Assembly (NCBI GenBank): GCA_963767925.1
Contig: CAVYGB010000008.1
Location: 1,888,001-1,952,000 of the forward strand
Length of the DNA stretch: 64,000 nucleotides
Direction: 5' to 3'
Source: an uncultured delta proteobacterium
Lineage (GTDB): Bacteria; Myxococcota_A; Polyangia; Fen-1088
Both the position numbers and the translations under genes were made by a program. This document shows positions 4,920 to 13,062 of the stretch, piece by piece. Under the pieces are notes generated by a model that saw nothing but the letters and a program-made list of their open reading frames with translations, ran no database searches and was not told the origin of the DNA. Position 1 is the first letter of the stretch, and the number at the start of each line of letters is the position of its first letter.

Positions 4920-6133
4920 TTGGGCAGCTCCACGCCGAGCGCCCGGGCCACGCTCGTCATGTCCTTGTCGCCTCTGCCCGAGACGTTCACGACGATGATC
5001 CCGCCGGGATCGAGCGTGCGGGCCACTGCCGGCAGGGCGGCGATGGCGTGGGCGCTCTCGAGCGCCGGGAGGATGCCCTCGAGGCGGGCGAGCTGACCGA
5101 GGGCGGCCAGGGCCTCCTTGTCGGTGACCGAGATGTACTGGGCCCGGCCCGTATCTTTTAGGTGGGCGTGCTCGGGGCCGACGCCGGGGTAGTCCAGGCC
5201 TGCGGAGATGGAGTGGGCCTCGGCGATCTGCCCGTCCTCGTCGCACAGGACGTACGATCGCGCCCCGTGAAGGACGCCCACCCGCCCCTGCGCCAGGGTG
5301 GCGGCGTGGCGCCCGCTGGCGATCCCCTCACCGGCCGCCTCGACCCCGACGAGCCGGACGCCGGCGTCGGGGACGAAGGCGTGAAACAGCCCCATGGCGT
5401 TCGATCCCCCGCCCACGCAGGCGCAAAGCGCGTCGGGTAAGCGGCCAACGGCGGCCTGGATCTGCTCGCGCGCCTCGCGGCCGATCACGGCCTGCAGGTC
5501 GCGGACGAGCGTCGGATAGGGATGGGCGCCCGCGACCGATCCGATCACGTAGTGGGTGGAGCGAACGTTGGTGACCCAGTCCCGCATCGCCTCGTTCATC
5601 GCGTCCTTTAGGGTCGCGGTCCCGGTGCTGACCGCGTGGACCTCGGCGCCGAGCAGCTTCATCCGGAAGACGTTGAGCGCCTGACGCTCGACGTCGACGG
5701 CCCCCATGTACACCTCGCAGGGCAGCCCGAACAGGGCGCAGGCGCTCGCGGTGGCGACGCCGTGCTGGCCGGCTCCGGTCTCGGCGATGATGCGGGTCTT
5801 GCCCATCCGCCGGGCCAGCAACACCTGGCCGATGCAGTTGTTGATCTTGTGCGCCCCGGTATGGCAGAGGTCCTCGCGCTTGAGGAACACGCGAACCTCG
5901 CGCCCGGCCTCGCGGCTCACCTCGGCGCCGAGGCGCAGGGCCTCTCCCAGCGGCGTGGGCCGTCCCACGTAATCCCGTAAGAGCCGATCCAGCTCCTCGG
6001 TGAAGGCGGGGTCGACCGACGCCTCTTTCCAGGCGGCGGCGAGCTGATCGAGCGAGGGCATCAAGATTTCGGCGACGTAACGGCCGCCGAATTCGCCGAA
6101 GCGGCCGGGGCGCGCGGGAGCGGAGGCAGACAT
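4916..6133 (-). CDS. trpB: Tryptophan synthase beta chain
   Basis: [15 protein letters not shown] (PLP Lys), [32 protein letters not shown]. Confidence 0.98.
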
Positions 6134-6199
6134 GGAGGCGGGAGACTACACTGGCCGGGACCGAACGTCGCGCCACCTGTGCTATATCGGCCTCTGCCC

Positions 6200-6553
6200 A
6201 TGCCGGAGCTGGAGCCAGAATCCGAGGTGTTCGATCCCCGCAGCCGCCGTCTTTGTCCCGACGGAACCTGCATCGGCGTGATCGGCGCAGATGGTCGATG
6301 CAAGGCCTGCGGGCTGGCCGCTAGACCGGGCCTCGCCGGTGAGGCGTCGGGCGCAGCGCGGGATCTGGAGCGGGAAAAGGAAGAGGACCTGGCCACCGAC
6401 GATCTCGACGAGCCGGACGCCGGCCTGGCCGCCGAACCGATCGGCGGCAGCGGCTTCGATCCCACCCGGAAGCTGTGCGTCGACGGGAGCTGCATCGGGG
6501 TCATCGGGCCAGATGGCCGCTGCACCGAATGCGGCCAGGTGGCGGAGGCCTGA
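6200..6553 (+). CDS. Small protein with two copies of a C-x4-C-x9-C-x2-C putative metal-binding motif
   Basis: FDP-x-x-R-x-LCPDGTCIGVIGADGRCKACG and LCVDGSCIGVIGPDGRCTECG separated by an acidic linker. Confidence 0.75.
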   Translation: MPELEPESEVFDPRSRRLCPDGTCIGVIGADGRCKACGLAARPGLAGEASGAARDLEREKEEDLATDDLDEPDAGLAAEPIGGSGFDPTRKLCVDGSCIGVIGPDGRCTECGQVAEA

Positions 6554-6555
6554 AC

Positions 6556-6915
6556 ATGCCCTCGGTGGCCGTGATCGGCGCCTCCAACGTCCGGGAGAAG
6601 TTCGGCAACCGCGCGGTGCGGGCCTACCTGCGGCAGGGCTGGACCGTCTATCCGGTCAACCCGAACGAGACCACGGTCGAGGGCCTCGCGGTCTTCGCCA
6701 GCATCCTCGACATCCCCGGCGAGGTGGACCGCGCCTCGCTGTACGTGCCGCCGGCCGTCGGGGAGACCCTGCTGGCCGACATCCGGCGCAAGGGGGTCAA
6801 GGAGCTGTTCGTTAACCCCGGCGCCGAGAGCGACACCTTGCTGGAGCAGGCCGAGAAGCTCGGGCTCTCTCCCATCCAGGCCTGCAGCATCGTCGACATC
6901 GGCGAAAGGCCGTGA
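6556..6915 (+). CDS. CoA-binding protein (YccU-like)
   Basis: VAVIGAS-x-x-x-EKFGN, VYPVNP, NPGAES motifs. Confidence 0.85.
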   Translation: MPSVAVIGASNVREKFGNRAVRAYLRQGWTVYPVNPNETTVEGLAVFASILDIPGEVDRASLYVPPAVGETLLADIRRKGVKELFVNPGAESDTLLEQAEKLGLSPIQACSIVDIGERP

Positions 6916-7888
6916 GCAGCGGCGCCCCACCCTCCGAGCGCTCGGCCGTGGCTCCCGCGGTCAGCAACATGCTCGAGCTCATCGGCGGCACGCCCCTGGT
7001 TCGTCTGCGCCACCTGCCCGACCCGGAAGGCGCGGAGGTGTTCGTCAAGTGCGAGCAGTTCAATCCGGGGGGCTCGGTCAAGGACCGGGTCGCCCTGGCG
7101 ATGATCGCGCGTGGCGAGCGCGAGGGCAAGCTGGTCCCCGGCAAGTCGGTCATCGTCGAGCCCACCTCGGGAAACACCGGGGTGGGGCTGGCGCTGGTGG
7201 CGGCGGTGCGCGGCTACCGGCTGATGCTGACCATGCCCGACAACATGTCGATCGAGCGGCGCATGTTGCTGTCGGCCTACGGCGCCGAGGTGATCCTGAC
7301 CCCGGCCGCGCTGGTCATGCAAGGGGCGGTCGACAAGGCGGCCGAGCTCTGCGCCGGAAACCCCGACTACGTGAGCCCGCAGCAGTTCCAGAATCCGGCC
7401 AACGTCGAGGCCCACCTGCGCGCCACCGGCCCCGAGATCGTGGCCCAGCTCGCCGAGGCCGGGCGGCCCGGCTGCGACGCCTTCGTGGCGGGGGTGGGGA
7501 CCGGCGGCACCATCACCGGCGCCGGCCGGGTGCTCGGCGGGCCTTCCCCCAGGTGCGGATCGTCGCCATCGAGCCCAGCAAGAGCGCGGTCCTGTCCGGG
7601 CGAGCGGCCGGTGAACACCGGATCGACGGCATCGGGGCCGGCTTCGTCCCCGAGATCCTCGACCGGTCGATCATCTCGGAGGTGCGCACCATCAGCGAGG
7701 AGGAAGCCCAGGAGCACAAGCTGGCCCTGGCCCGGCGGGAAGGCCTGCTGGTCGGAATCTCGGCGGGGGCGGCGGTCAAGATCGCCCTGGACGTGGCGCG
7801 GGAGCTGGGTCGCGGGAAGACCGTCGTCACGGTGTTGCCCGACACCGGCGAGCGCTACTTCAGCAGCGACGAGTCGTTCGAGCGGTGA
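6912..7888 (+). CDS. cysK: Cysteine synthase A-like PLP enzyme (frameshift near 7535, probably a sequencing error)
   Basis: NPGGSVKDR, EPTSGNTG, GVGTGGTITG; C-terminal GIGAGFVP, GISAGA, PDTGERYFS in another frame. Confidence 0.85.
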
Positions 7889-8595
7889 GCGCGCCGGGCG
7901 TGCTGCTCATCGGTGCCGGCGGGCTGGGCTGCGGCGCCGCGATCGGGCTGGCCGGCGGCGGGGTCTCCACCCTCGGGGTGGTGGACGACGACACCGTCGA
8001 TCTCAGCAACCTGCACCGCCAGATCCTCCACCGCCCCGAGCGGGTGGGCGCGCGCAAGACCGAGTCGTTCCGGCAGGAGCTGGCGATCCGCTACCCGGGC
8101 CTGCGGGTGACGGTCCACGACGGCCGACTCACCGGGGCCAACGCCGCGGCGCTGTTCGCCGGCTACCAGGTCGTCATCGACGGCTCGGACAACCTGGCCA
8201 CCAAGTTCCTGGCCAACGACGCCGCCGTGCTGACGGGCAAGGCGCTCGTCCATGCGGCGGCGGTGGGCACCGGCGGCCAGCTCATCACGGTGCTGCCGGG
8301 AGGCCGCCCCTGTTACCGCTGCCTGTTCGAGGAGCTCCCCCCGCCCGAGGCCGATGCGCCGTCGTGCGCAGAGGCCGGGGTGCTGGGCCCGGTGCCGGGC
8401 GTGCTGGGCGCGCTGGCCGCCTCCGAAGCGGTGCGGCTGCTGCGGGGCGAGGCGCCCGCCTTCGCCGGCTGGGTCCTGCGCTACGAGGGCTCGCTCCTGT
8501 CGATGCGGGCCTCCCGGTTCCGGCGCAACCCGCTGTGCCGGGTCTGCGGCGACCGGCCGACGATTGACGGCTCGTCCCTCCGGCTCGACCCGTGA
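7885..8595 (+). CDS. MoeB/ThiF (E1-like) adenylyltransferase, catalytic motifs intact but lacking the N-terminal RxxRQ segment
   Basis: GAGGLG, DDDTVDLSNLHRQ, DGSDN, CYRC, SCAEAGV, CRVC. Confidence 0.9.
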   Translation: MSAPGVLLIGAGGLGCGAAIGLAGGGVSTLGVVDDDTVDLSNLHRQILHRPERVGARKTESFRQELAIRYPGLRVTVHDGRLTGANAAALFAGYQVVIDGSDNLATKFLANDAAVLTGKALVHAAAVGTGGQLITVLPGGRPCYRCLFEELPPPEADAPSCAEAGVLGPVPGVLGALAASEAVRLLRGEAPAFAGWVLRYEGSLLSMRASRFRRNPLCRVCGDRPTIDGSSLRLDP

Positions 8596-8652
8596 GGCCA
8601 ACCCCACCCCGAGAAACGCGCTACAGTACCCGCGAACAAAGGAGACAGCGAC

Positions 8653-8925
8653 ATGGCCAGTGTTCGGATCCCCACGCCTCTGCGCAAGCTGACCAACGGT
8701 CAGGAAGAGGTCAAGGCGGCCGGCGGCAGCGTGGCCGCGATCATCGCCGACCTCGACAAGCAGTACCCCGGGCTGCGCGAGCGCATTTGCGACGACCAGG
8801 GGAAGGTCCGCCGCTTCGTGAACATCTTCAAGAACGACGAGGATATCCGCTTCCTGCAGAGCCTCGAGACCCCGGTCGCCGACGCCGACGAGCTCTCGAT
8901 CGTCCCGGCGATCGCAGGGGGTTGA
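8653..8925 (+). CDS. Ubiquitin-like sulfur carrier (MoaD/ThiS/CysO family)
   Basis: VRIPTPLR...RFVNIF-x-N-x-EDIR...IVPAIAGG C-terminal GG; AAGGAG RBS. Confidence 0.93.
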   Translation: MASVRIPTPLRKLTNGQEEVKAAGGSVAAIIADLDKQYPGLRERICDDQGKVRRFVNIFKNDEDIRFLQSLETPVADADELSIVPAIAGG

Positions 8926-8936
8926 CGGAAGCGGCC

Positions 8937-9590
8937 GTGAGCCTGTCGCTCGAGCAGACCCGCCGGTTCGCCCGGCAGATCGCCCTGCCCGAGGTCGGCC
9001 CCGGCGGCCAGCTCCGCCTGGCCGAGGCCGGGGTGGCGCTCGTGCGCGCGGCCCCCGATCGGGACCCGTCTGGCGACGTCGCCGCCGAATACCTGGCGGC
9101 GGCTGGCGTCGGTCGGATCGTGCCGCTGGCACCTCCGGCGGAAGGGGGCGAGGCCTGGGTGGCGGCCCTGGCCGGGTTCACCGCCGTCGTGCGCTTCGGC
9201 TTCGAAGACGACGCGCTCCTGCGGGCGGCGGTTCGACGGGGGCTACCGGCCATCTTCGCCCGGGCCCTGACTGACCAGGTCGACGTCCTGTCTTTCCGGC
9301 GGCACGGGCCCTGCCCCCACGTGGCCCTCGACGTGCCGGTCCGCAGCGCGACCGGCCCCGGGGCCGAGGCGGGCGCCGGCGCCTCGGTGGCCGGCACCCT
9401 GGTGGCGACCGAGCTGCTGGGGATCCTGGTGGCCCCCGAGGCGGGCCCCCGGGCGAGGCTGCTGCGGCTGTCCCTGGCCGGCGGCGATCGGGCCCGACCT
9501 CCCCAGGCCTCGGAGATGCCCTGGGCCCCCGAGTGTTTCATCTGCGGCGGGCAGAGCCAGGAAGCGGCCTTCACCGGAGCCCGCTCATGA
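8937..9590 (+). CDS. Degenerate ThiF/MoeB-like protein (no GxGxxG; keeps N-terminal RFARQ and C-terminal CxxC)
   Basis: LSLEQTRRFARQIALPEVGPGGQLRL, YLAAAGVGRI, ECFICG; GTG start 8937. Confidence 0.75.
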   Translation: MSLSLEQTRRFARQIALPEVGPGGQLRLAEAGVALVRAAPDRDPSGDVAAEYLAAAGVGRIVPLAPPAEGGEAWVAALAGFTAVVRFGFEDDALLRAAVRRGLPAIFARALTDQVDVLSFRRHGPCPHVALDVPVRSATGPGAEAGAGASVAGTLVATELLGILVAPEAGPRARLLRLSLAGGDRARPPQASEMPWAPECFICGGQSQEAAFTGARS

Positions 9591-10589
9591 GCGATTCGCC
9601 GGCCGTCCCCCTCCCGGTCGACAGCGAGGCGGTGGCCCGGGCCCGCGCCCGGGTGGCCGAGAGCATCACCGACCTCATCGGCAACACGCCGATCGTGCGG
9701 CTGCGCTCGATCGATCGCGACTTCCCCGGGATCGAGATCTGGGCCAAGTGCGAGTTCATGAACCCCGGTGGCTCGGTCAAGGATCGGGCTGCCTTCCAGA
9801 TGATCCGCGACGCCATCGACAGCGGGGCCCTGACCCCGGACAAGGAGATCATCGACTCGTCGAGCGGCAACACCGGGATCGCCTACTCCCTCATCGGCGG
9901 CGCCCTCGGTTACCGGGTCACCCTGGTGCTGCCGGGCAACGTCTCCTGGGCCCGGCGCCAGATCAGCGAGGCCTTCGGCACCAAGCTGGTCTTCTCGAGC
10001 CCCCTCGAGGGCTCGGACGGGGCCATCGTCCTGGTTCGCAAGCTGGTGGACGCGGATCCCGAGCGCTACTTCTATCCGAATCAGTACGGCAACGACTCCA
10101 ACCCGGGCGGCCACTACCGGACGACCGGCCGCGAGATCTGGGAGCAGACCGGAGGCCGGGTCACCCACTTCGTGACCGGCATCGGCACCAGCGGCACCGT
10201 GATGGGGACCGGCCGGCGGCTCAAGAGCTACCGGCGCGAGATCGAGGTCTATGCGGTGGAGCCCGACGATGCCCTGCACGGTCTCGAGGGCCTCAAGCAC
10301 ATGGAGAGCTCGATCGTGCCGGAGATTTACCACCCCGAAGAGCTGGACGGGGTGCTGCCGATCTCGACCGAAGACGGCCTGGGACATCTGCGAGCGGCTC
10401 TCGCGCGACGAGGGCATCCTGGTGGGCCACTCCTCGGGAGCGGCGGTGGCGGGGGCGGTGCGCCTGGCCCGGGAGCTGGCCGCCGCGGGCAAGCCCGGCG
10501 TCATCGTGACGGTCTTTCCCGATCGGGCCGACCGCTACTTCGAAGCCCCTCTTCAGACCCAGACCACCCCGTCCAAGGAGAAGCCGTGA
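9587..10589 (+). CDS. cysM: Cysteine synthase B/CysM-like PLP enzyme (frameshift near 10378)
   Basis: NPGGSVKDR, DSSSGNTG, GIGTSGT, LEGLKH; C-terminal GHSSGA...FPDRADRYF in another frame. Confidence 0.8.
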
Positions 10590-11061
10590 CGAAGGGACCT
10601 CATCCCCGGTTGACCCCGGCGGCGCTGGAGCGAGATCTACGCCCACGCCCGCCGCGACTATCCCAGCGAGTGCTGCGGGATCGTGTTCGGACCCAAGGGG
10701 CAGCCCCTGGCCGAGCGGGTGAAGGCCTGCCGCAACATCCAGGACCAGCTCCACGCCGACGATCCCGATCTGCATCCCCGCACCTCGCGCAACGCCTACA
10801 ACCTCGAGCCGACCGACATCTTCGCTCTGCGAGAAGAGCCTGCGGGGCGAGCAGCCGGCCAAGATCGTCTACCACTCGCACATCGACGTGGGCGCCTACT
10901 TCAGCGAGACCGACCAGGCCGCCGCCCGCTTCGGGGACGAGCCCGCTTACCCGGTCGAATACGTTGTCGTCGACGTCAAGCGGGACGGCACCCACGGGGC
11001 CCGCCAGTTCGCCTGGGACGAGGCGGCCACCAAATACGTCGAAGTCGATCAGTACGACTGA
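10586..11061 (+). CDS. JAB/MPN+ (M67, Mec-like) metallopeptidase (two frameshifts, ~10632 and ~10832)
   Basis: Joined frames give YP-x-ECCG...YHSH-x-D-x-GAYFSETD, the JAMM motif. Confidence 0.85.
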
Positions 11062-11079
11062 CGGGGGGACCTGGGGGCG

Positions 11080-11739
11080 ATGAAGCTCTACGGCTACTGG
11101 CGCAGCTCCTCGGCCTGGCGGGTGCGCATCGCCCTGCTGCACAAGGGCCTGCCCTTCGAATACCAGCCGGTGCACCTCGTCCGCGACGGCGGCGAGCAGC
11201 ACGGCGCCGGCTACCGGGCGCTCAACCCCATGGCCGAGGTCCCGACCCTCGAGATCGAGGACGCAGGGAAGATCCGGCACCTGGGGCAGTCGCTGGCCAT
11301 CCTGGCCTACCTCGAGCGGATGGCGCCGAGCCCCCCCTTGCTCCCGGCCGACCCCTTCGCGGCGGCCCGGGCCTGGCAGCTTGCCGAGGTGGTGAACGCC
11401 GGGACGCAGCCGCTGCAGAACAGCGCCGTTCTCCTGCGCGTCAAGAACGAGCTCCGCGGGGACGAGCAGGCCTGGGCCCGCCACTTCATCGCCCGCGGCC
11501 TGACCGCCCTCGAGGCGCTGGCCCGCGACAGCGCCGGCCGATTCCTGGTGGGCGAGGCGGTCAGCGTCGCCGATGTGTGCCTGGTTCCCCAGCTCTACAA
11601 CGCCCGTCGCTACGGGGTCGAGGTGGGTGCCTATCCAACCTTGCTCGCGGTGGAGGGGAGCTGCCTGGCGCTCCCCGCCTTCGTGGACAGCCACCCCGAC
11701 CGCCAGCCGGATGCCCCCGCCCCGCCGGCCCGCGGCTAG
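11080..11739 (+). CDS. maiA: Maleylacetoacetate isomerase (GST zeta)
   Basis: LYGYWRSSSAWRVRIAL-x-x-KG, QPLQN, ADVCLVPQLYNARR, HP-x-x-QPDAP. Confidence 0.93.
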   Translation: MKLYGYWRSSSAWRVRIALLHKGLPFEYQPVHLVRDGGEQHGAGYRALNPMAEVPTLEIEDAGKIRHLGQSLAILAYLERMAPSPPLLPADPFAAARAWQLAEVVNAGTQPLQNSAVLLRVKNELRGDEQAWARHFIARGLTALEALARDSAGRFLVGEAVSVADVCLVPQLYNARRYGVEVGAYPTLLAVEGSCLALPAFVDSHPDRQPDAPAPPARG

Positions 11740-11781
11740 GGCTGTGCACCAGCTGTCAACGCGCTGGCGGCTTCCGCCGAT

Positions 11782-13062
11782 GTGCGGAGGGTGCCGACCA
11801 CGACGGCCCCTTCGGCCGACGAATCCCGGGCCCAAGAGGACGGCCCCCAGGAGATCACCCGCCGGATAACCATCCCGGGCTTCGTCCTGGGGCAAGCGCC
11901 CGAGCTCGACCGGCGCATCTGGATGCTGGCCGCCACCCGCTTCGTCGTCACCGCCGGGTTCGCGGCGGTCATGCCCTTCCTGGCGCTGCACCTGGTCGTC
12001 GAGCGGAACTTCCCCATCCTGCGCATCGGCCTCCTGTGGACGGTGGTCGGCCTGATCAGCGCCTCCATGCAATGGGTCGCCGGCCAGATCACCGACCGGC
12101 TGGGTCGGCGGCGGGTGCTCCTGTGGGCCATGGTGATCCGCTCGCTGAACCTCGCCCTGCTCGGCTGGGCCATCGGCGCGCGCGCCTCGTTCGCGACCAT
12201 CGGCGCCCTGTGCGTCCTCAACGGGGCCATGCGCGCGTTCTACGACCCGGCTGCCTCCGCCCTCGTAGCGGCCCTTTGCTCGCGGGACAAGCGGGTCGCC
12301 GCCTTCTCCCTGCACCGGGTGGGATCCAGCCTGGGCTGGGCCGCGGGCCCGCTGGCCATCACCTTCGCGCCCGAGACGGCCTACGCCACCATCTTCTACG
12401 TCGCCGCGCCCATCACCTTCATCGCCGCCGGGGCGGTGGCGATGTTGCCCGACTCGGGCAGCATGTTGAGCCCCTCCCGCCTGCGCTGGTCGCAGATCGC
12501 CGCGTTCCGCCGGGATCGCAAGTTCATGCGCTTCCTGCTGGCGACGCTGCCGTTTTTCGTCCTGCAGACGCAGATGTACCACATGCTCCCGATCTTCGCG
12601 GCCAAGTACCTGGGTCTGGATCGGACGCAGGTTGGCTCGCTCTTCGTGGTCAACGGCATCCTGGTGGTGCTCGTGCAGCTCCCCGCGGTGACGCTGATCC
12701 GCCGGATGGGGACGGCGGGCGCGCTCGTCCTGGGATCGCTCGGGTACGTGGTGGCCTACTTCGGGGTGGGCCTGGCCACCGGCTACCTGAGCCTCCTGTT
12801 CTGCGTGGTGCTGGCCACCCTCTGCGAGATCGCGGCGGTCCCGGCCCACCAGGCCCGGGTCACCGCCCTCGCCCCCATCGACAACGTGGCCGGCTACGTG
12901 GGCCTGGGCGGCCTCGTGCAGGGCATCGCCCAGACCAGCGGGCCGATCGTCGGGAGCTGCCTCATCGAGCTGACCAGCCCCAGCGTCGGCTGGATGGTGC
13001 TGGCGCTGCTGGGGGTGGCGGCTGCGGCCGGCTTCCGCCGGCGTCGCCCCGTGAAGCCCTGA
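11782..13062 (+). CDS. MFS transporter (start uncertain)
   Basis: Motif A GQITDRLGRR; about 12 hydrophobic segments. Confidence 0.88.
   Translation: MRRVPTTTAPSADESRAQEDGPQEITRRITIPGFVLGQAPELDRRIWMLAATRFVVTAGFAAVMPFLALHLVVERNFPILRIGLLWTVVGLISASMQWVAGQITDRLGRRRVLLWAMVIRSLNLALLGWAIGARASFATIGALCVLNGAMRAFYDPAASALVAALCSRDKRVAAFSLHRVGSSLGWAAGPLAITFAPETAYATIFYVAAPITFIAAGAVAMLPDSGSMLSPSRLRWSQIAAFRRDRKFMRFLLATLPFFVLQTQMYHMLPIFAAKYLGLDRTQVGSLFVVNGILVVLVQLPAVTLIRRMGTAGALVLGSLGYVVAYFGVGLATGYLSLLFCVVLATLCEIAAVPAHQARVTALAPIDNVAGYVGLGGLVQGIAQTSGPIVGSCLIELTSPSVGWMVLALLGVAAAAGFRRRRPVKP

Follow-up and report, generated by a model that had tools for sequence, protein, structure and literature searches.

The 64,000-nucleotide stretch analysed here (the window; positions 1888001-1952000 of contig C8 in assembly G000) carries an operon of the CysO/CysM/Mec+ type, in which the gene of a ubiquitin-like (Ubl) sulfur carrier is flanked by two genes of the ThiF/MoeB adenylyltransferase family, thiF-1 and thiF-2. 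ThiF-1 and ThiF-2 are probably the catalytic and the non-catalytic subunit of one asymmetric E1-like dimer, which would adenylate the Gly-Gly end of the carrier. At the level of sequence and fold, the pair comprises two adenylation-domain folds, a single ATP site, and a finger arginine located on the inactive fold. Moreover, on balance we lean towards the view that Polyangia evolved a two-polypeptide E1 independently of eukaryotes, and that its non-catalytic subunit survives in a graded natural series. Indeed, ThiF-2 was found as a fold of approximately 210-260 amino acids (aa) in one family, as a module of approximately 136-159 aa, and as a C-terminal tail in one genome, and it is missing altogether in one genome.

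ThiF-1 has the features of an active enzyme that has lost its N-terminal end. The 236-aa protein matches the Pfam family PF00899 with 195.1 bits (cut-off 28.1), residues 6-220 aligning with positions 23-238 of the 238-position profile; the first 22 profile positions are missing, and the protein starts at the first Rossmann strand. The ATP-binding and catalytic motifs listed for this gene in the initial annotation, which was made from the sequence alone, are all present. Invariant in 20 orthologues are GAGGxGC, R45 and Q46 of SNLHRQ, K58, and D99, D102 and N103 of DGSDN, together with the two CxxC pairs (C143/C146 and C218/C221) and the loop cysteine C161, and ThiF-1 has no insertion in the alignment of these sequences. 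Among solved structures, ThiF-1 matches 1zud and 1zfn with E values of about 4e-42 and 1jw9 with 4.7e-41. The same annotation had argued that the start codon leaves no room for an N-terminal RxxRQ...GQ segment, and this also holds true: the GTG at 7885-7887 overlaps the cysK stop TGA at 7886-7888, and the RxxRQ...GxxGQ motif is absent from the in-frame upstream sequence in the window. No compensating basic residue was detected in ThiF-1, as none of its seven class-specific positions adds one. No E2-like gene is present in the operon and, judged by its domain content, ThiF-1 is not a canonical ubiquitin-type E1, since it has neither a catalytic cysteine domain nor a ubiquitin-fold domain, nor a cognate E2.

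ThiF-2 shows the complementary pattern. Its N-terminus, VSLSLEQTRRFARQIALPEVGPGGQ, retains the segment as RFARQ...GPGGQ, and alignments of 15 and 76 sequences lack the P-loop GxGxxG, the arginine of SNLxRQ, the lysine, and the aspartate of DxxDN; for GxGxxG and SNLxRQ this agrees with what had first been noted for this gene. Pfam ThiF covers approximately the first 60 residues only, with 24.5 bits, under the cut-off of 28.1, and no NCBIfam model scores above its cut-off for either ThiF-1 or ThiF-2. Nevertheless, ThiF-2 has a genuine ThiF fold. Over its entire length, a profile built from 15 orthologues can be aligned with Escherichia coli ThiF (1zfn, E 2.8e-15; profile positions 1-221 against chain residues 2-251) and MoeB (1jw9, E 1.4e-12), and the AlphaFold2 (AF2) model (predicted local distance difference test, pLDDT, 88.3; predicted template modelling score 0.84) has Uba4, ThiF and MoeB as its nearest folds in Foldseek. 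By its residues, ThiF-2 is a homologue of the family that is not expected to be an enzyme.

The conserved positions of ThiF-2 fall into two regions. Its Cys126/His128/Cys200/Cys203 set matches the zinc site of the family, and the invariant columns across 76 sequences include G21, G24 and Q25, as well as C126, H128, C200 and C203. R13 is kept in 99% of the 76 long forms, and segment 9-27, with a conservation of 0.79, ranks among the three best, the segments of the zinc site reaching 0.81 and 0.85. Irrespective of length, all 23 ThiF-2-like sequences examined have both GxxGQ and the second arginine of the motif. The finger residues are numbered Arg14 in MoeB and Arg11 in ThiF (PMC13139853, available part) and, by alignment with these numbers, R13 of ThiF-2 corresponds to them. 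An alternative in-frame start, a TTG at 8922 that overlaps the stop of the carrier gene, is available besides the GTG at 8937. Database relatives of ThiF-2 are named "hypothetical protein" or, generically, "ThiF family adenylyltransferase", which represents an annotation gap.

To follow the two genes, 40 relatives were searched in addition to G000, all of these genomes being related to one another. ThiF-1 orthologues (56-75% identity) were found in 21 of the 24 genomes of the same family (f1), and ThiF-2 orthologues in the same 21; the remaining three (G008, G016 and G023) contain neither. The Ubl gene is also absent from G016 and G023, and G008 has a different Ubl-ThiF arrangement. Both genes lie on one contig in 20 of the 21 genomes and on different contigs in G022, which is 70% complete. 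One family genome, G013, carries a 149-aa form of ThiF-2. A total of 21 family loci were examined for an upstream motif, two of them being cut by contig ends. None of the 19 assessable ThiF-1 loci, G000 included, carries RxxR[QHN]...GxxGQ before the P-loop, whereas this motif is present in all nine rhodanese-ThiF paralogues examined. Thus, the expectation that ThiF-1 orthologues would not retain RxxRQ was borne out at all assessable loci of the family.

A similar picture emerged from 16 genomes belonging to 13 other Polyangia families. Half of them (G028, G030, G031, G032, G033, G034, G037 and G040) carry an operon-type ThiF-1 that again begins with the Rossmann strand, none of the eight with the motif before the P-loop, and a ThiF-2 relative is present in seven of the eight. 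In G028, G030, G031, G033 and G037, a ThiF-2-like gene of 136-159 aa follows the carrier gene. These short forms comprise the finger segment and the first Rossmann elements, mostly with a terminal helix as well, and they are devoid of the C-terminal Cys/His/Cys/Cys subdomain. The operon contig of G032 ends early, and an N-terminal ThiF-2 match was located in a 152-aa open frame on another contig; in G040, the finger segment is placed after the ThiF core as a C-terminal fusion. Two further genomes, G026 (RYARQ) and G039 (RYKRH), have an operon ThiF with its own motif, and in both there is no ThiF-2 between the carrier gene and cysM. In the remaining six genomes no operon-type ThiF-1 was seen with the query used. 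Since the motif is missing from 19 of 19 family and eight of eight other ThiF-1 sequences, yet is carried by nine of nine paralogues and by G026 and G039, the truncation of ThiF-1 goes back, on these alignments, to the ancestor of the clade and is no artefact of the assembly.

Long-form ThiF-2 constitutes a small clade: of 1.84 billion searched, 45 representative clusters match at E<=1e-30. When 301 genomes sampled evenly across the phylum were scanned with the long-form profile (E<=1e-18; 10 candidates scored per genome), only G000 and one N-terminal-only match in a 425-aa frame were recovered, and no long form was detected outside the family. Look-alike clusters of the ESM Atlas (scores 0.91-0.94) are mostly labelled Candidatus Binatota or Myxococcota, and the degenerate form may occur outside Myxococcota. 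In a tree of 51 sequences, long-form ThiF-2 forms one clade that branches within the ThiF lineage linked to the operon and is separated from the rhodanese-ThiF paralogues (SH-aLRT 100); its stem branch is very long, with 3.2 substitutions per site. A topology placing ThiF-2 as sister to the ThiF-1 of the family was not rejected (p-AU 0.56). The most parsimonious history would be that the full-length ThiF of the operon, still present as such in G026, was duplicated and that the two copies then underwent complementary loss.

Two natural fusions combine the same elements in single chains. The fusion of G040 (L059:2766-3827) is a 353-aa frame in which a truncated ThiF-1-like enzyme is followed by a 90-aa finger segment at its C-terminus. 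A second, 449-aa protein (L056:4968-6317, on contig CAZGCA010000003.1 of a metagenome-assembled genome; P0179) consists of a degenerate, finger-bearing ThiF domain with RYSRQ...GEAGQ followed by a truncated active ThiF domain without a finger segment of its own, and P0387 is alike. Its gene adjoins a ThiI-like PP-loop/NFACT-R_2 gene. The AF2 model of L056:4968-6314, built on a three-sequence alignment, is unusable (mean pLDDT 43.4). As far as the motifs indicate, the same arrangement arose as a fusion elsewhere, in this rare, unrelated single-chain protein.

ThiF and MoeB act as dimers in which the finger is supplied in trans, and the CysO/CysM/Mec+ chemistry is well established. In the dimer that we propose, ThiF-1 would supply the entire ATP/Mg site, the zinc site and the loop cysteine, and ThiF-2 would replace the second protomer of the usual ThiF/MoeB homodimer. 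ThiF-2 would bring the N-terminal helices lost from ThiF-1, including R13 as the equivalent of the trans-acting finger, and each complex would contain one active site. That ThiF-1 associates with ThiF-2, and that R13 enters the site of ThiF-1, are predictions from the sequences. Once activated, the carrier would be thiocarboxylated and then used by CysM, and the JAMM peptidase would release cysteine as in the mycobacterial CysO pathway. Several observations argue for a dimer with a single site: the finger segment is all that ThiF-1 lacks, and ThiF-2 universally conserves little else; within the family neither gene occurs without the other, and genomes whose operon ThiF retains the segment have no ThiF-2; and ThiF-1 has gained no conserved basic residue that could replace the finger. 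Further points in favour are the finger arginine kept in every length form, the ThiF fold of ThiF-2 and its origin in the lineage of the operon ThiFs, the tight coupling of the genes, and natural fusions built on the same logic. There are also precedents. In MoeB, ThiF and Tcd1-Tcd2, an N-terminal arginine extends from one protomer to the ATP of the other (PMC13139853). Asymmetric E1s keep this arginine on the inactive half, as does human UBA1 with Arg57 (PMC12355090), and Arg9 of the inactive domain of BilD completes the active site (PMC10557695, available part).

Other data weigh against this reading, or at least against its strictest form. According to the available part of a 2026 study, the fingers Arg14 of MoeB and Arg11 of ThiF are not essential, and the R59A change in yeast Tcd1 costs only 26% of the activity (PMC13139853). 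Likewise, UBA3 can activate NEDD8 by itself, with APPBP1 doing no more than speeding up the reaction (PMC6031683, available part). Since the finger is non-essential in MoeB and ThiF, loss of the segment need not cripple a ThiF-1 homodimer. Natural variation provides a further counterexample, as G034, which is 95% complete, has a truncated ThiF-1 in an operon of cysK, thiF-1, Ubl, cysM and JAMM genes, and no ThiF-2 was found in this genome, where the sole finger-bearing match is a rhodanese-ThiF. The truncated enzyme can therefore persist without ThiF-2. The ThiF-1 of G034 (L067:2025-2732) lies on a long end branch (1.46), and its second CxxC is changed to CRC. In addition, because the genomes searched are relatives, the co-occurrence counts reflect few independent events, and the ThiF-2 of G032 consists of an N-terminal match in an open frame only. 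The fusions are rare as well: that of G040 lies outside a CysO operon and has one 99%-identical cluster with full coverage, a singleton that could result from a lost stop codon or an assembly error, and the P0179 architecture is limited to two protein clusters.

Accordingly, the claim of the initial annotation that ThiF-1 and ThiF-2 are subfunctionalised halves of an obligate heterodimeric E1 is only partly sustained. The complementary motifs are conserved, but an obligate dependence on ThiF-2 is doubtful in view of the non-essential fingers, the activity of UBA3 alone, and G034. Similarly, N-truncated ThiF-1 was expected to occur always with ThiF-2, and it does so in all 21 f1 genomes with a ThiF-1 and in seven of the eight genomes elsewhere, but not in G034, the single case of ThiF-1 without ThiF-2 among 30 genomes with a ThiF-1 orthologue or an operon-type ThiF-1. 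Tcd1 is nonetheless needed for the solubility and function of Tcd2 (PMC13139853). Given the literature on the dispensability of the finger, ThiF-2 may matter as much for stabilising ThiF-1 as for catalysis, and it may do so by filling in, at the dimer interface, for the N-terminal helices that ThiF-1 has lost.

These considerations lead to an alternative in which ThiF-1 works as a homodimer without a finger and ThiF-2 has a different, accessory role, for instance as a scaffold or chaperone that keeps hold of the carrier, passes it to CysM, or regulates the pathway. Dispensable fingers in MoeB and ThiF (PMC13139853, available part) and the lack of ThiF-2 in G034 would fit such a role, and so would the C-terminal Cys/His/Cys/Cys subdomain kept by the long forms. 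In ThiF and MoeB, this subdomain lies near the bound carrier. However, the zinc-site subdomain is gone from the short forms, which consist mainly of the finger segment and the first Rossmann elements, so that the universally retained part of ThiF-2 is the part that acts in trans in homodimers, and ThiF-2 is absent where the operon ThiF has its own segment (G026 and G039). An accessory role is for these reasons rather unlikely, and the asymmetric dimer is preferred.

Two other explanations fare worse. ThiF-2 might be the partner of the MoeZ-like rhodanese-ThiF paralogue, or bridge ThiF-1 to it, thereby delivering persulfide sulfur to the carrier; the operon encodes no rhodanese domain, and most of the 41 genomes carry a rhodanese-ThiF of approximately 400 aa with 44-47% identity to ThiF-1. 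This is very improbable, since the paralogues keep their own finger segment (nine of nine) and need no donor, and ThiF-2 tracks ThiF-1 and the operon, whereas the paralogue is present also in genomes without ThiF-2, including G034. Finally, the very long stem branch (3.2 substitutions per site), the loss of all ATP-site residues and the shortening in several lineages could be taken as signs that ThiF-2 is a decaying duplicate without function. Such decay is hardly credible in the face of an open frame that is intact in six other families (as an open frame only in G032) besides 21 of the 24 genomes of the family itself, of columns G21, G24, Q25, C126, H128, C200 and C203 that are invariant across 76 sequences, and of the translational coupling of ThiF-2 to cysM.

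Asymmetric eukaryotic E1s are usually explained by descent from a MoeB/ThiF-like homodimer and, to our knowledge, intermediates between homodimeric and asymmetric E1s are scarce. When compared with E. coli MoeB and ThiF, ThiF-1 has the same fold and catalytic residues, ThiF-2 aligns over its full length, and the substrate is likewise a GG-ended carrier. The difference is that each protomer of MoeB or ThiF has both an active site and a finger, whereas here each resides on a different polypeptide, so that a dimer is predicted to have a single active site. NAE1 (APPBP1)-UBA3 and SAE1-SAE2 resemble the pair in having active and inactive adenylation subunits on two polypeptides, with the N-terminal arginine on the inactive one, and the ThiF-2 profile gives weak matches to the N-terminus of SAE1 (E about 0.003-0.004). 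However, these eukaryotic enzymes have a catalytic cysteine domain, a ubiquitin-fold domain and an E2, none of which occurs here, and they conjugate protein, whereas ThiF-1 and ThiF-2 belong to a sulfur-carrier pathway. In contrast to the eukaryotic heterodimeric E1s, the pair has an independent, recent origin inside one bacterial class.

Parallels are also found in two other systems. In the ct6A synthase of yeast, Tcd1-Tcd2, an inactive ThiF-family paralogue also gives its finger to the single active site of the partner, but this enzyme is eukaryotic and acts on tRNA, and Tcd1 has lost one ATP-site arginine where ThiF-2 has lost the whole site (PMC13139853, available part). In the same part of that source, the corresponding position of Tcd2 holds no finger residue, Lys70 and Asn71 being too far from the nucleotide, and the loss of an entire N-terminal segment is not mentioned. 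BilD, the E1 of the Bil antiviral system, is bacterial and has inactive and active adenylation domains, with Arg9 completing its sole active site; unlike the two-gene ThiF pair, it is a single chain that contains both adenylation domains as well as a catalytic Cys domain, and it works with an E2. Every other bacterial E1-like protein known is described as a homodimer in the available part of the report (PMC10557695). No description of a split or heterodimeric bacterial ThiF/MoeB was found in the openly searchable literature, which does not extend to subscription papers such as Burroughs et al. 2009 on the E1-like superfamily and Lake et al. 2001, both of which may have a bearing here. After BilD, a pair conserved and encoded within one operon would provide a second bacterial example of E1 asymmetry, one that is simple and tractable, set in an ordinary biosynthetic pathway and with natural variants available for comparison. 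In some lineages, the dead subunit is reduced to little beyond the finger segment. If the proposed reading is true, the graded ThiF-2 series offers a ready-made dissection of the need for an inactive E1 half.

The gene between thiF-1 and thiF-2 had been described as encoding a GG-ending ubiquitin-like protein, and it can now be identified as CysO-like. The carrier belongs to the ThiS family, its closest solved match is M. tuberculosis CysO (3dwg_C/3dwm, E 8.1e-24), and AAGGAG precedes its ATG. The operon holds this GG-ended carrier together with a CysM-type pyridoxal phosphate (PLP) enzyme and a JAMM peptidase, and it is assigned to the CysO/CysM/Mec+ type because the best solved relative of the carrier is M. 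tuberculosis CysO. By homology, the thiocarboxylate would be used with O-phosphoserine, and the peptidase would release cysteine. The general operon type corresponds to types 4c/4d of Iyer et al. 2006 (PMC1779556, available part). The mycobacterial CysO-CysM-Mec+ pathway shares with it a CysO-like carrier, a CysM-type enzyme and a JAMM peptidase in one operon. The activators differ: the mycobacterial one is the rhodanese-fused MoeZ (PMC3227635, available part), encoded elsewhere, whereas here a truncated ThiF and a degenerate ThiF are encoded in the operon, among whose genes no rhodanese domain was found. In G028, ThiF-1 and Ubl occupy one open frame without a stop between them (L057:3323-4291; Pfam ThiF and ThiS), and P0331 and P0347 are similar ThiS+ThiF proteins. 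The Ubl part of the G028 frame ends in GG-RS, and the JAMM peptidase would thus have to trim this end.

Assembly G000 comprises 9.3 Mb in 13 contigs, with approximately 71% G+C and a completeness of 83.8%, and the named close relatives of its proteins point to Polyangia or Myxococcales metagenome bins. The genes of the operon and its neighbours are listed in the table below. The operon genes are tightly coupled, and ThiF-2 is translationally coupled to cysM, whose ATG (9587-9589) overlaps the ThiF-2 stop TGA (9588-9590). No terminator-like site was found within positions 6000-12000 of the window.

Table. Genes of the carrier operon and adjoining genes, with positions in the window.
Feature	Position	Strand	Basis or remark
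CoA-binding protein gene	6475-6915	+	
cysK-type cysteine synthase	6912-7888	+	Pfam PALP on both pieces; one frame change at about 7547-7610
ThiF-1, E1-like adenylyltransferase of the active type, N-terminal RxxRQ...GxxGQ segment missing	7885-8595	+	PF00899
CysO-like sulfur-carrier Ubl, 90 aa, GG end	8653-8925	+	PF02597 ThiS, 58.7 bits
ThiF-2, degenerate ThiF fold with Arg-finger segment (R13)	8937-9590	+	Profile, AF2 model
cysM-type PLP enzyme	9587-10589	+	Pfam PALP on both pieces; one frame change at about 10326-10372
JAMM/Mec+-like peptidase gene, two frames	10614-11061	+	Shift near 10840; stop-to-stop frames
GST gene	11080-11739	+	

Several genes of G000 are interrupted by frame changes. 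The orthologues of cysK and cysM in G001, a genome of the same genus, are single-frame, and a tblastn search with the cysK orthologue continues in a second frame here; the JAMM orthologue in G001 is also single-frame, and the rhodanese-ThiF paralogue of G000 (C8:2897980-2898686) is broken into three frames. The frame changes in these four genes are probably assembly indel errors rather than signs of pseudogenes. The genes of ThiF-1, Ubl and ThiF-2 are uninterrupted, and each is co-linear with its orthologues. The best NCBIfam families of the cysM gene are cysM and cysKM, both below their cut-offs, and the JAMM assignment is based on gene order and on a weak NCBIfam "desampylase" match (E 4.2e-11), also below the cut-off. 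Among the sequencing runs matching positions 6900-11100 there was no RNA run, and the two soil-metagenome DNA runs share only 0.05-0.07 of words with this region.

The usual gene order in the family is cysK, thiF-1, in most genera a ThrC-like gene, Ubl, thiF-2, cysM and JAMM. The ThrC-like gene is absent from the genus of the window, from G011 and from G018. It encodes a 419-aa threonine-synthase-like protein with an N-terminal Cys-rich motif in L029 (2196-3455), and it lies at the same place, between thiF-1 and Ubl, in most relatives. By analogy with MetM/MetO, it may use the same carrier for a homocysteine or methionine branch. Directly upstream of the CoA-binding protein gene, a 124-aa open reading frame (6179-6553, + strand) contains two copies of C-x-DG-x-C-IGVIG-x-DGRC-xxCG, resembling a duplicated zinc ribbon.

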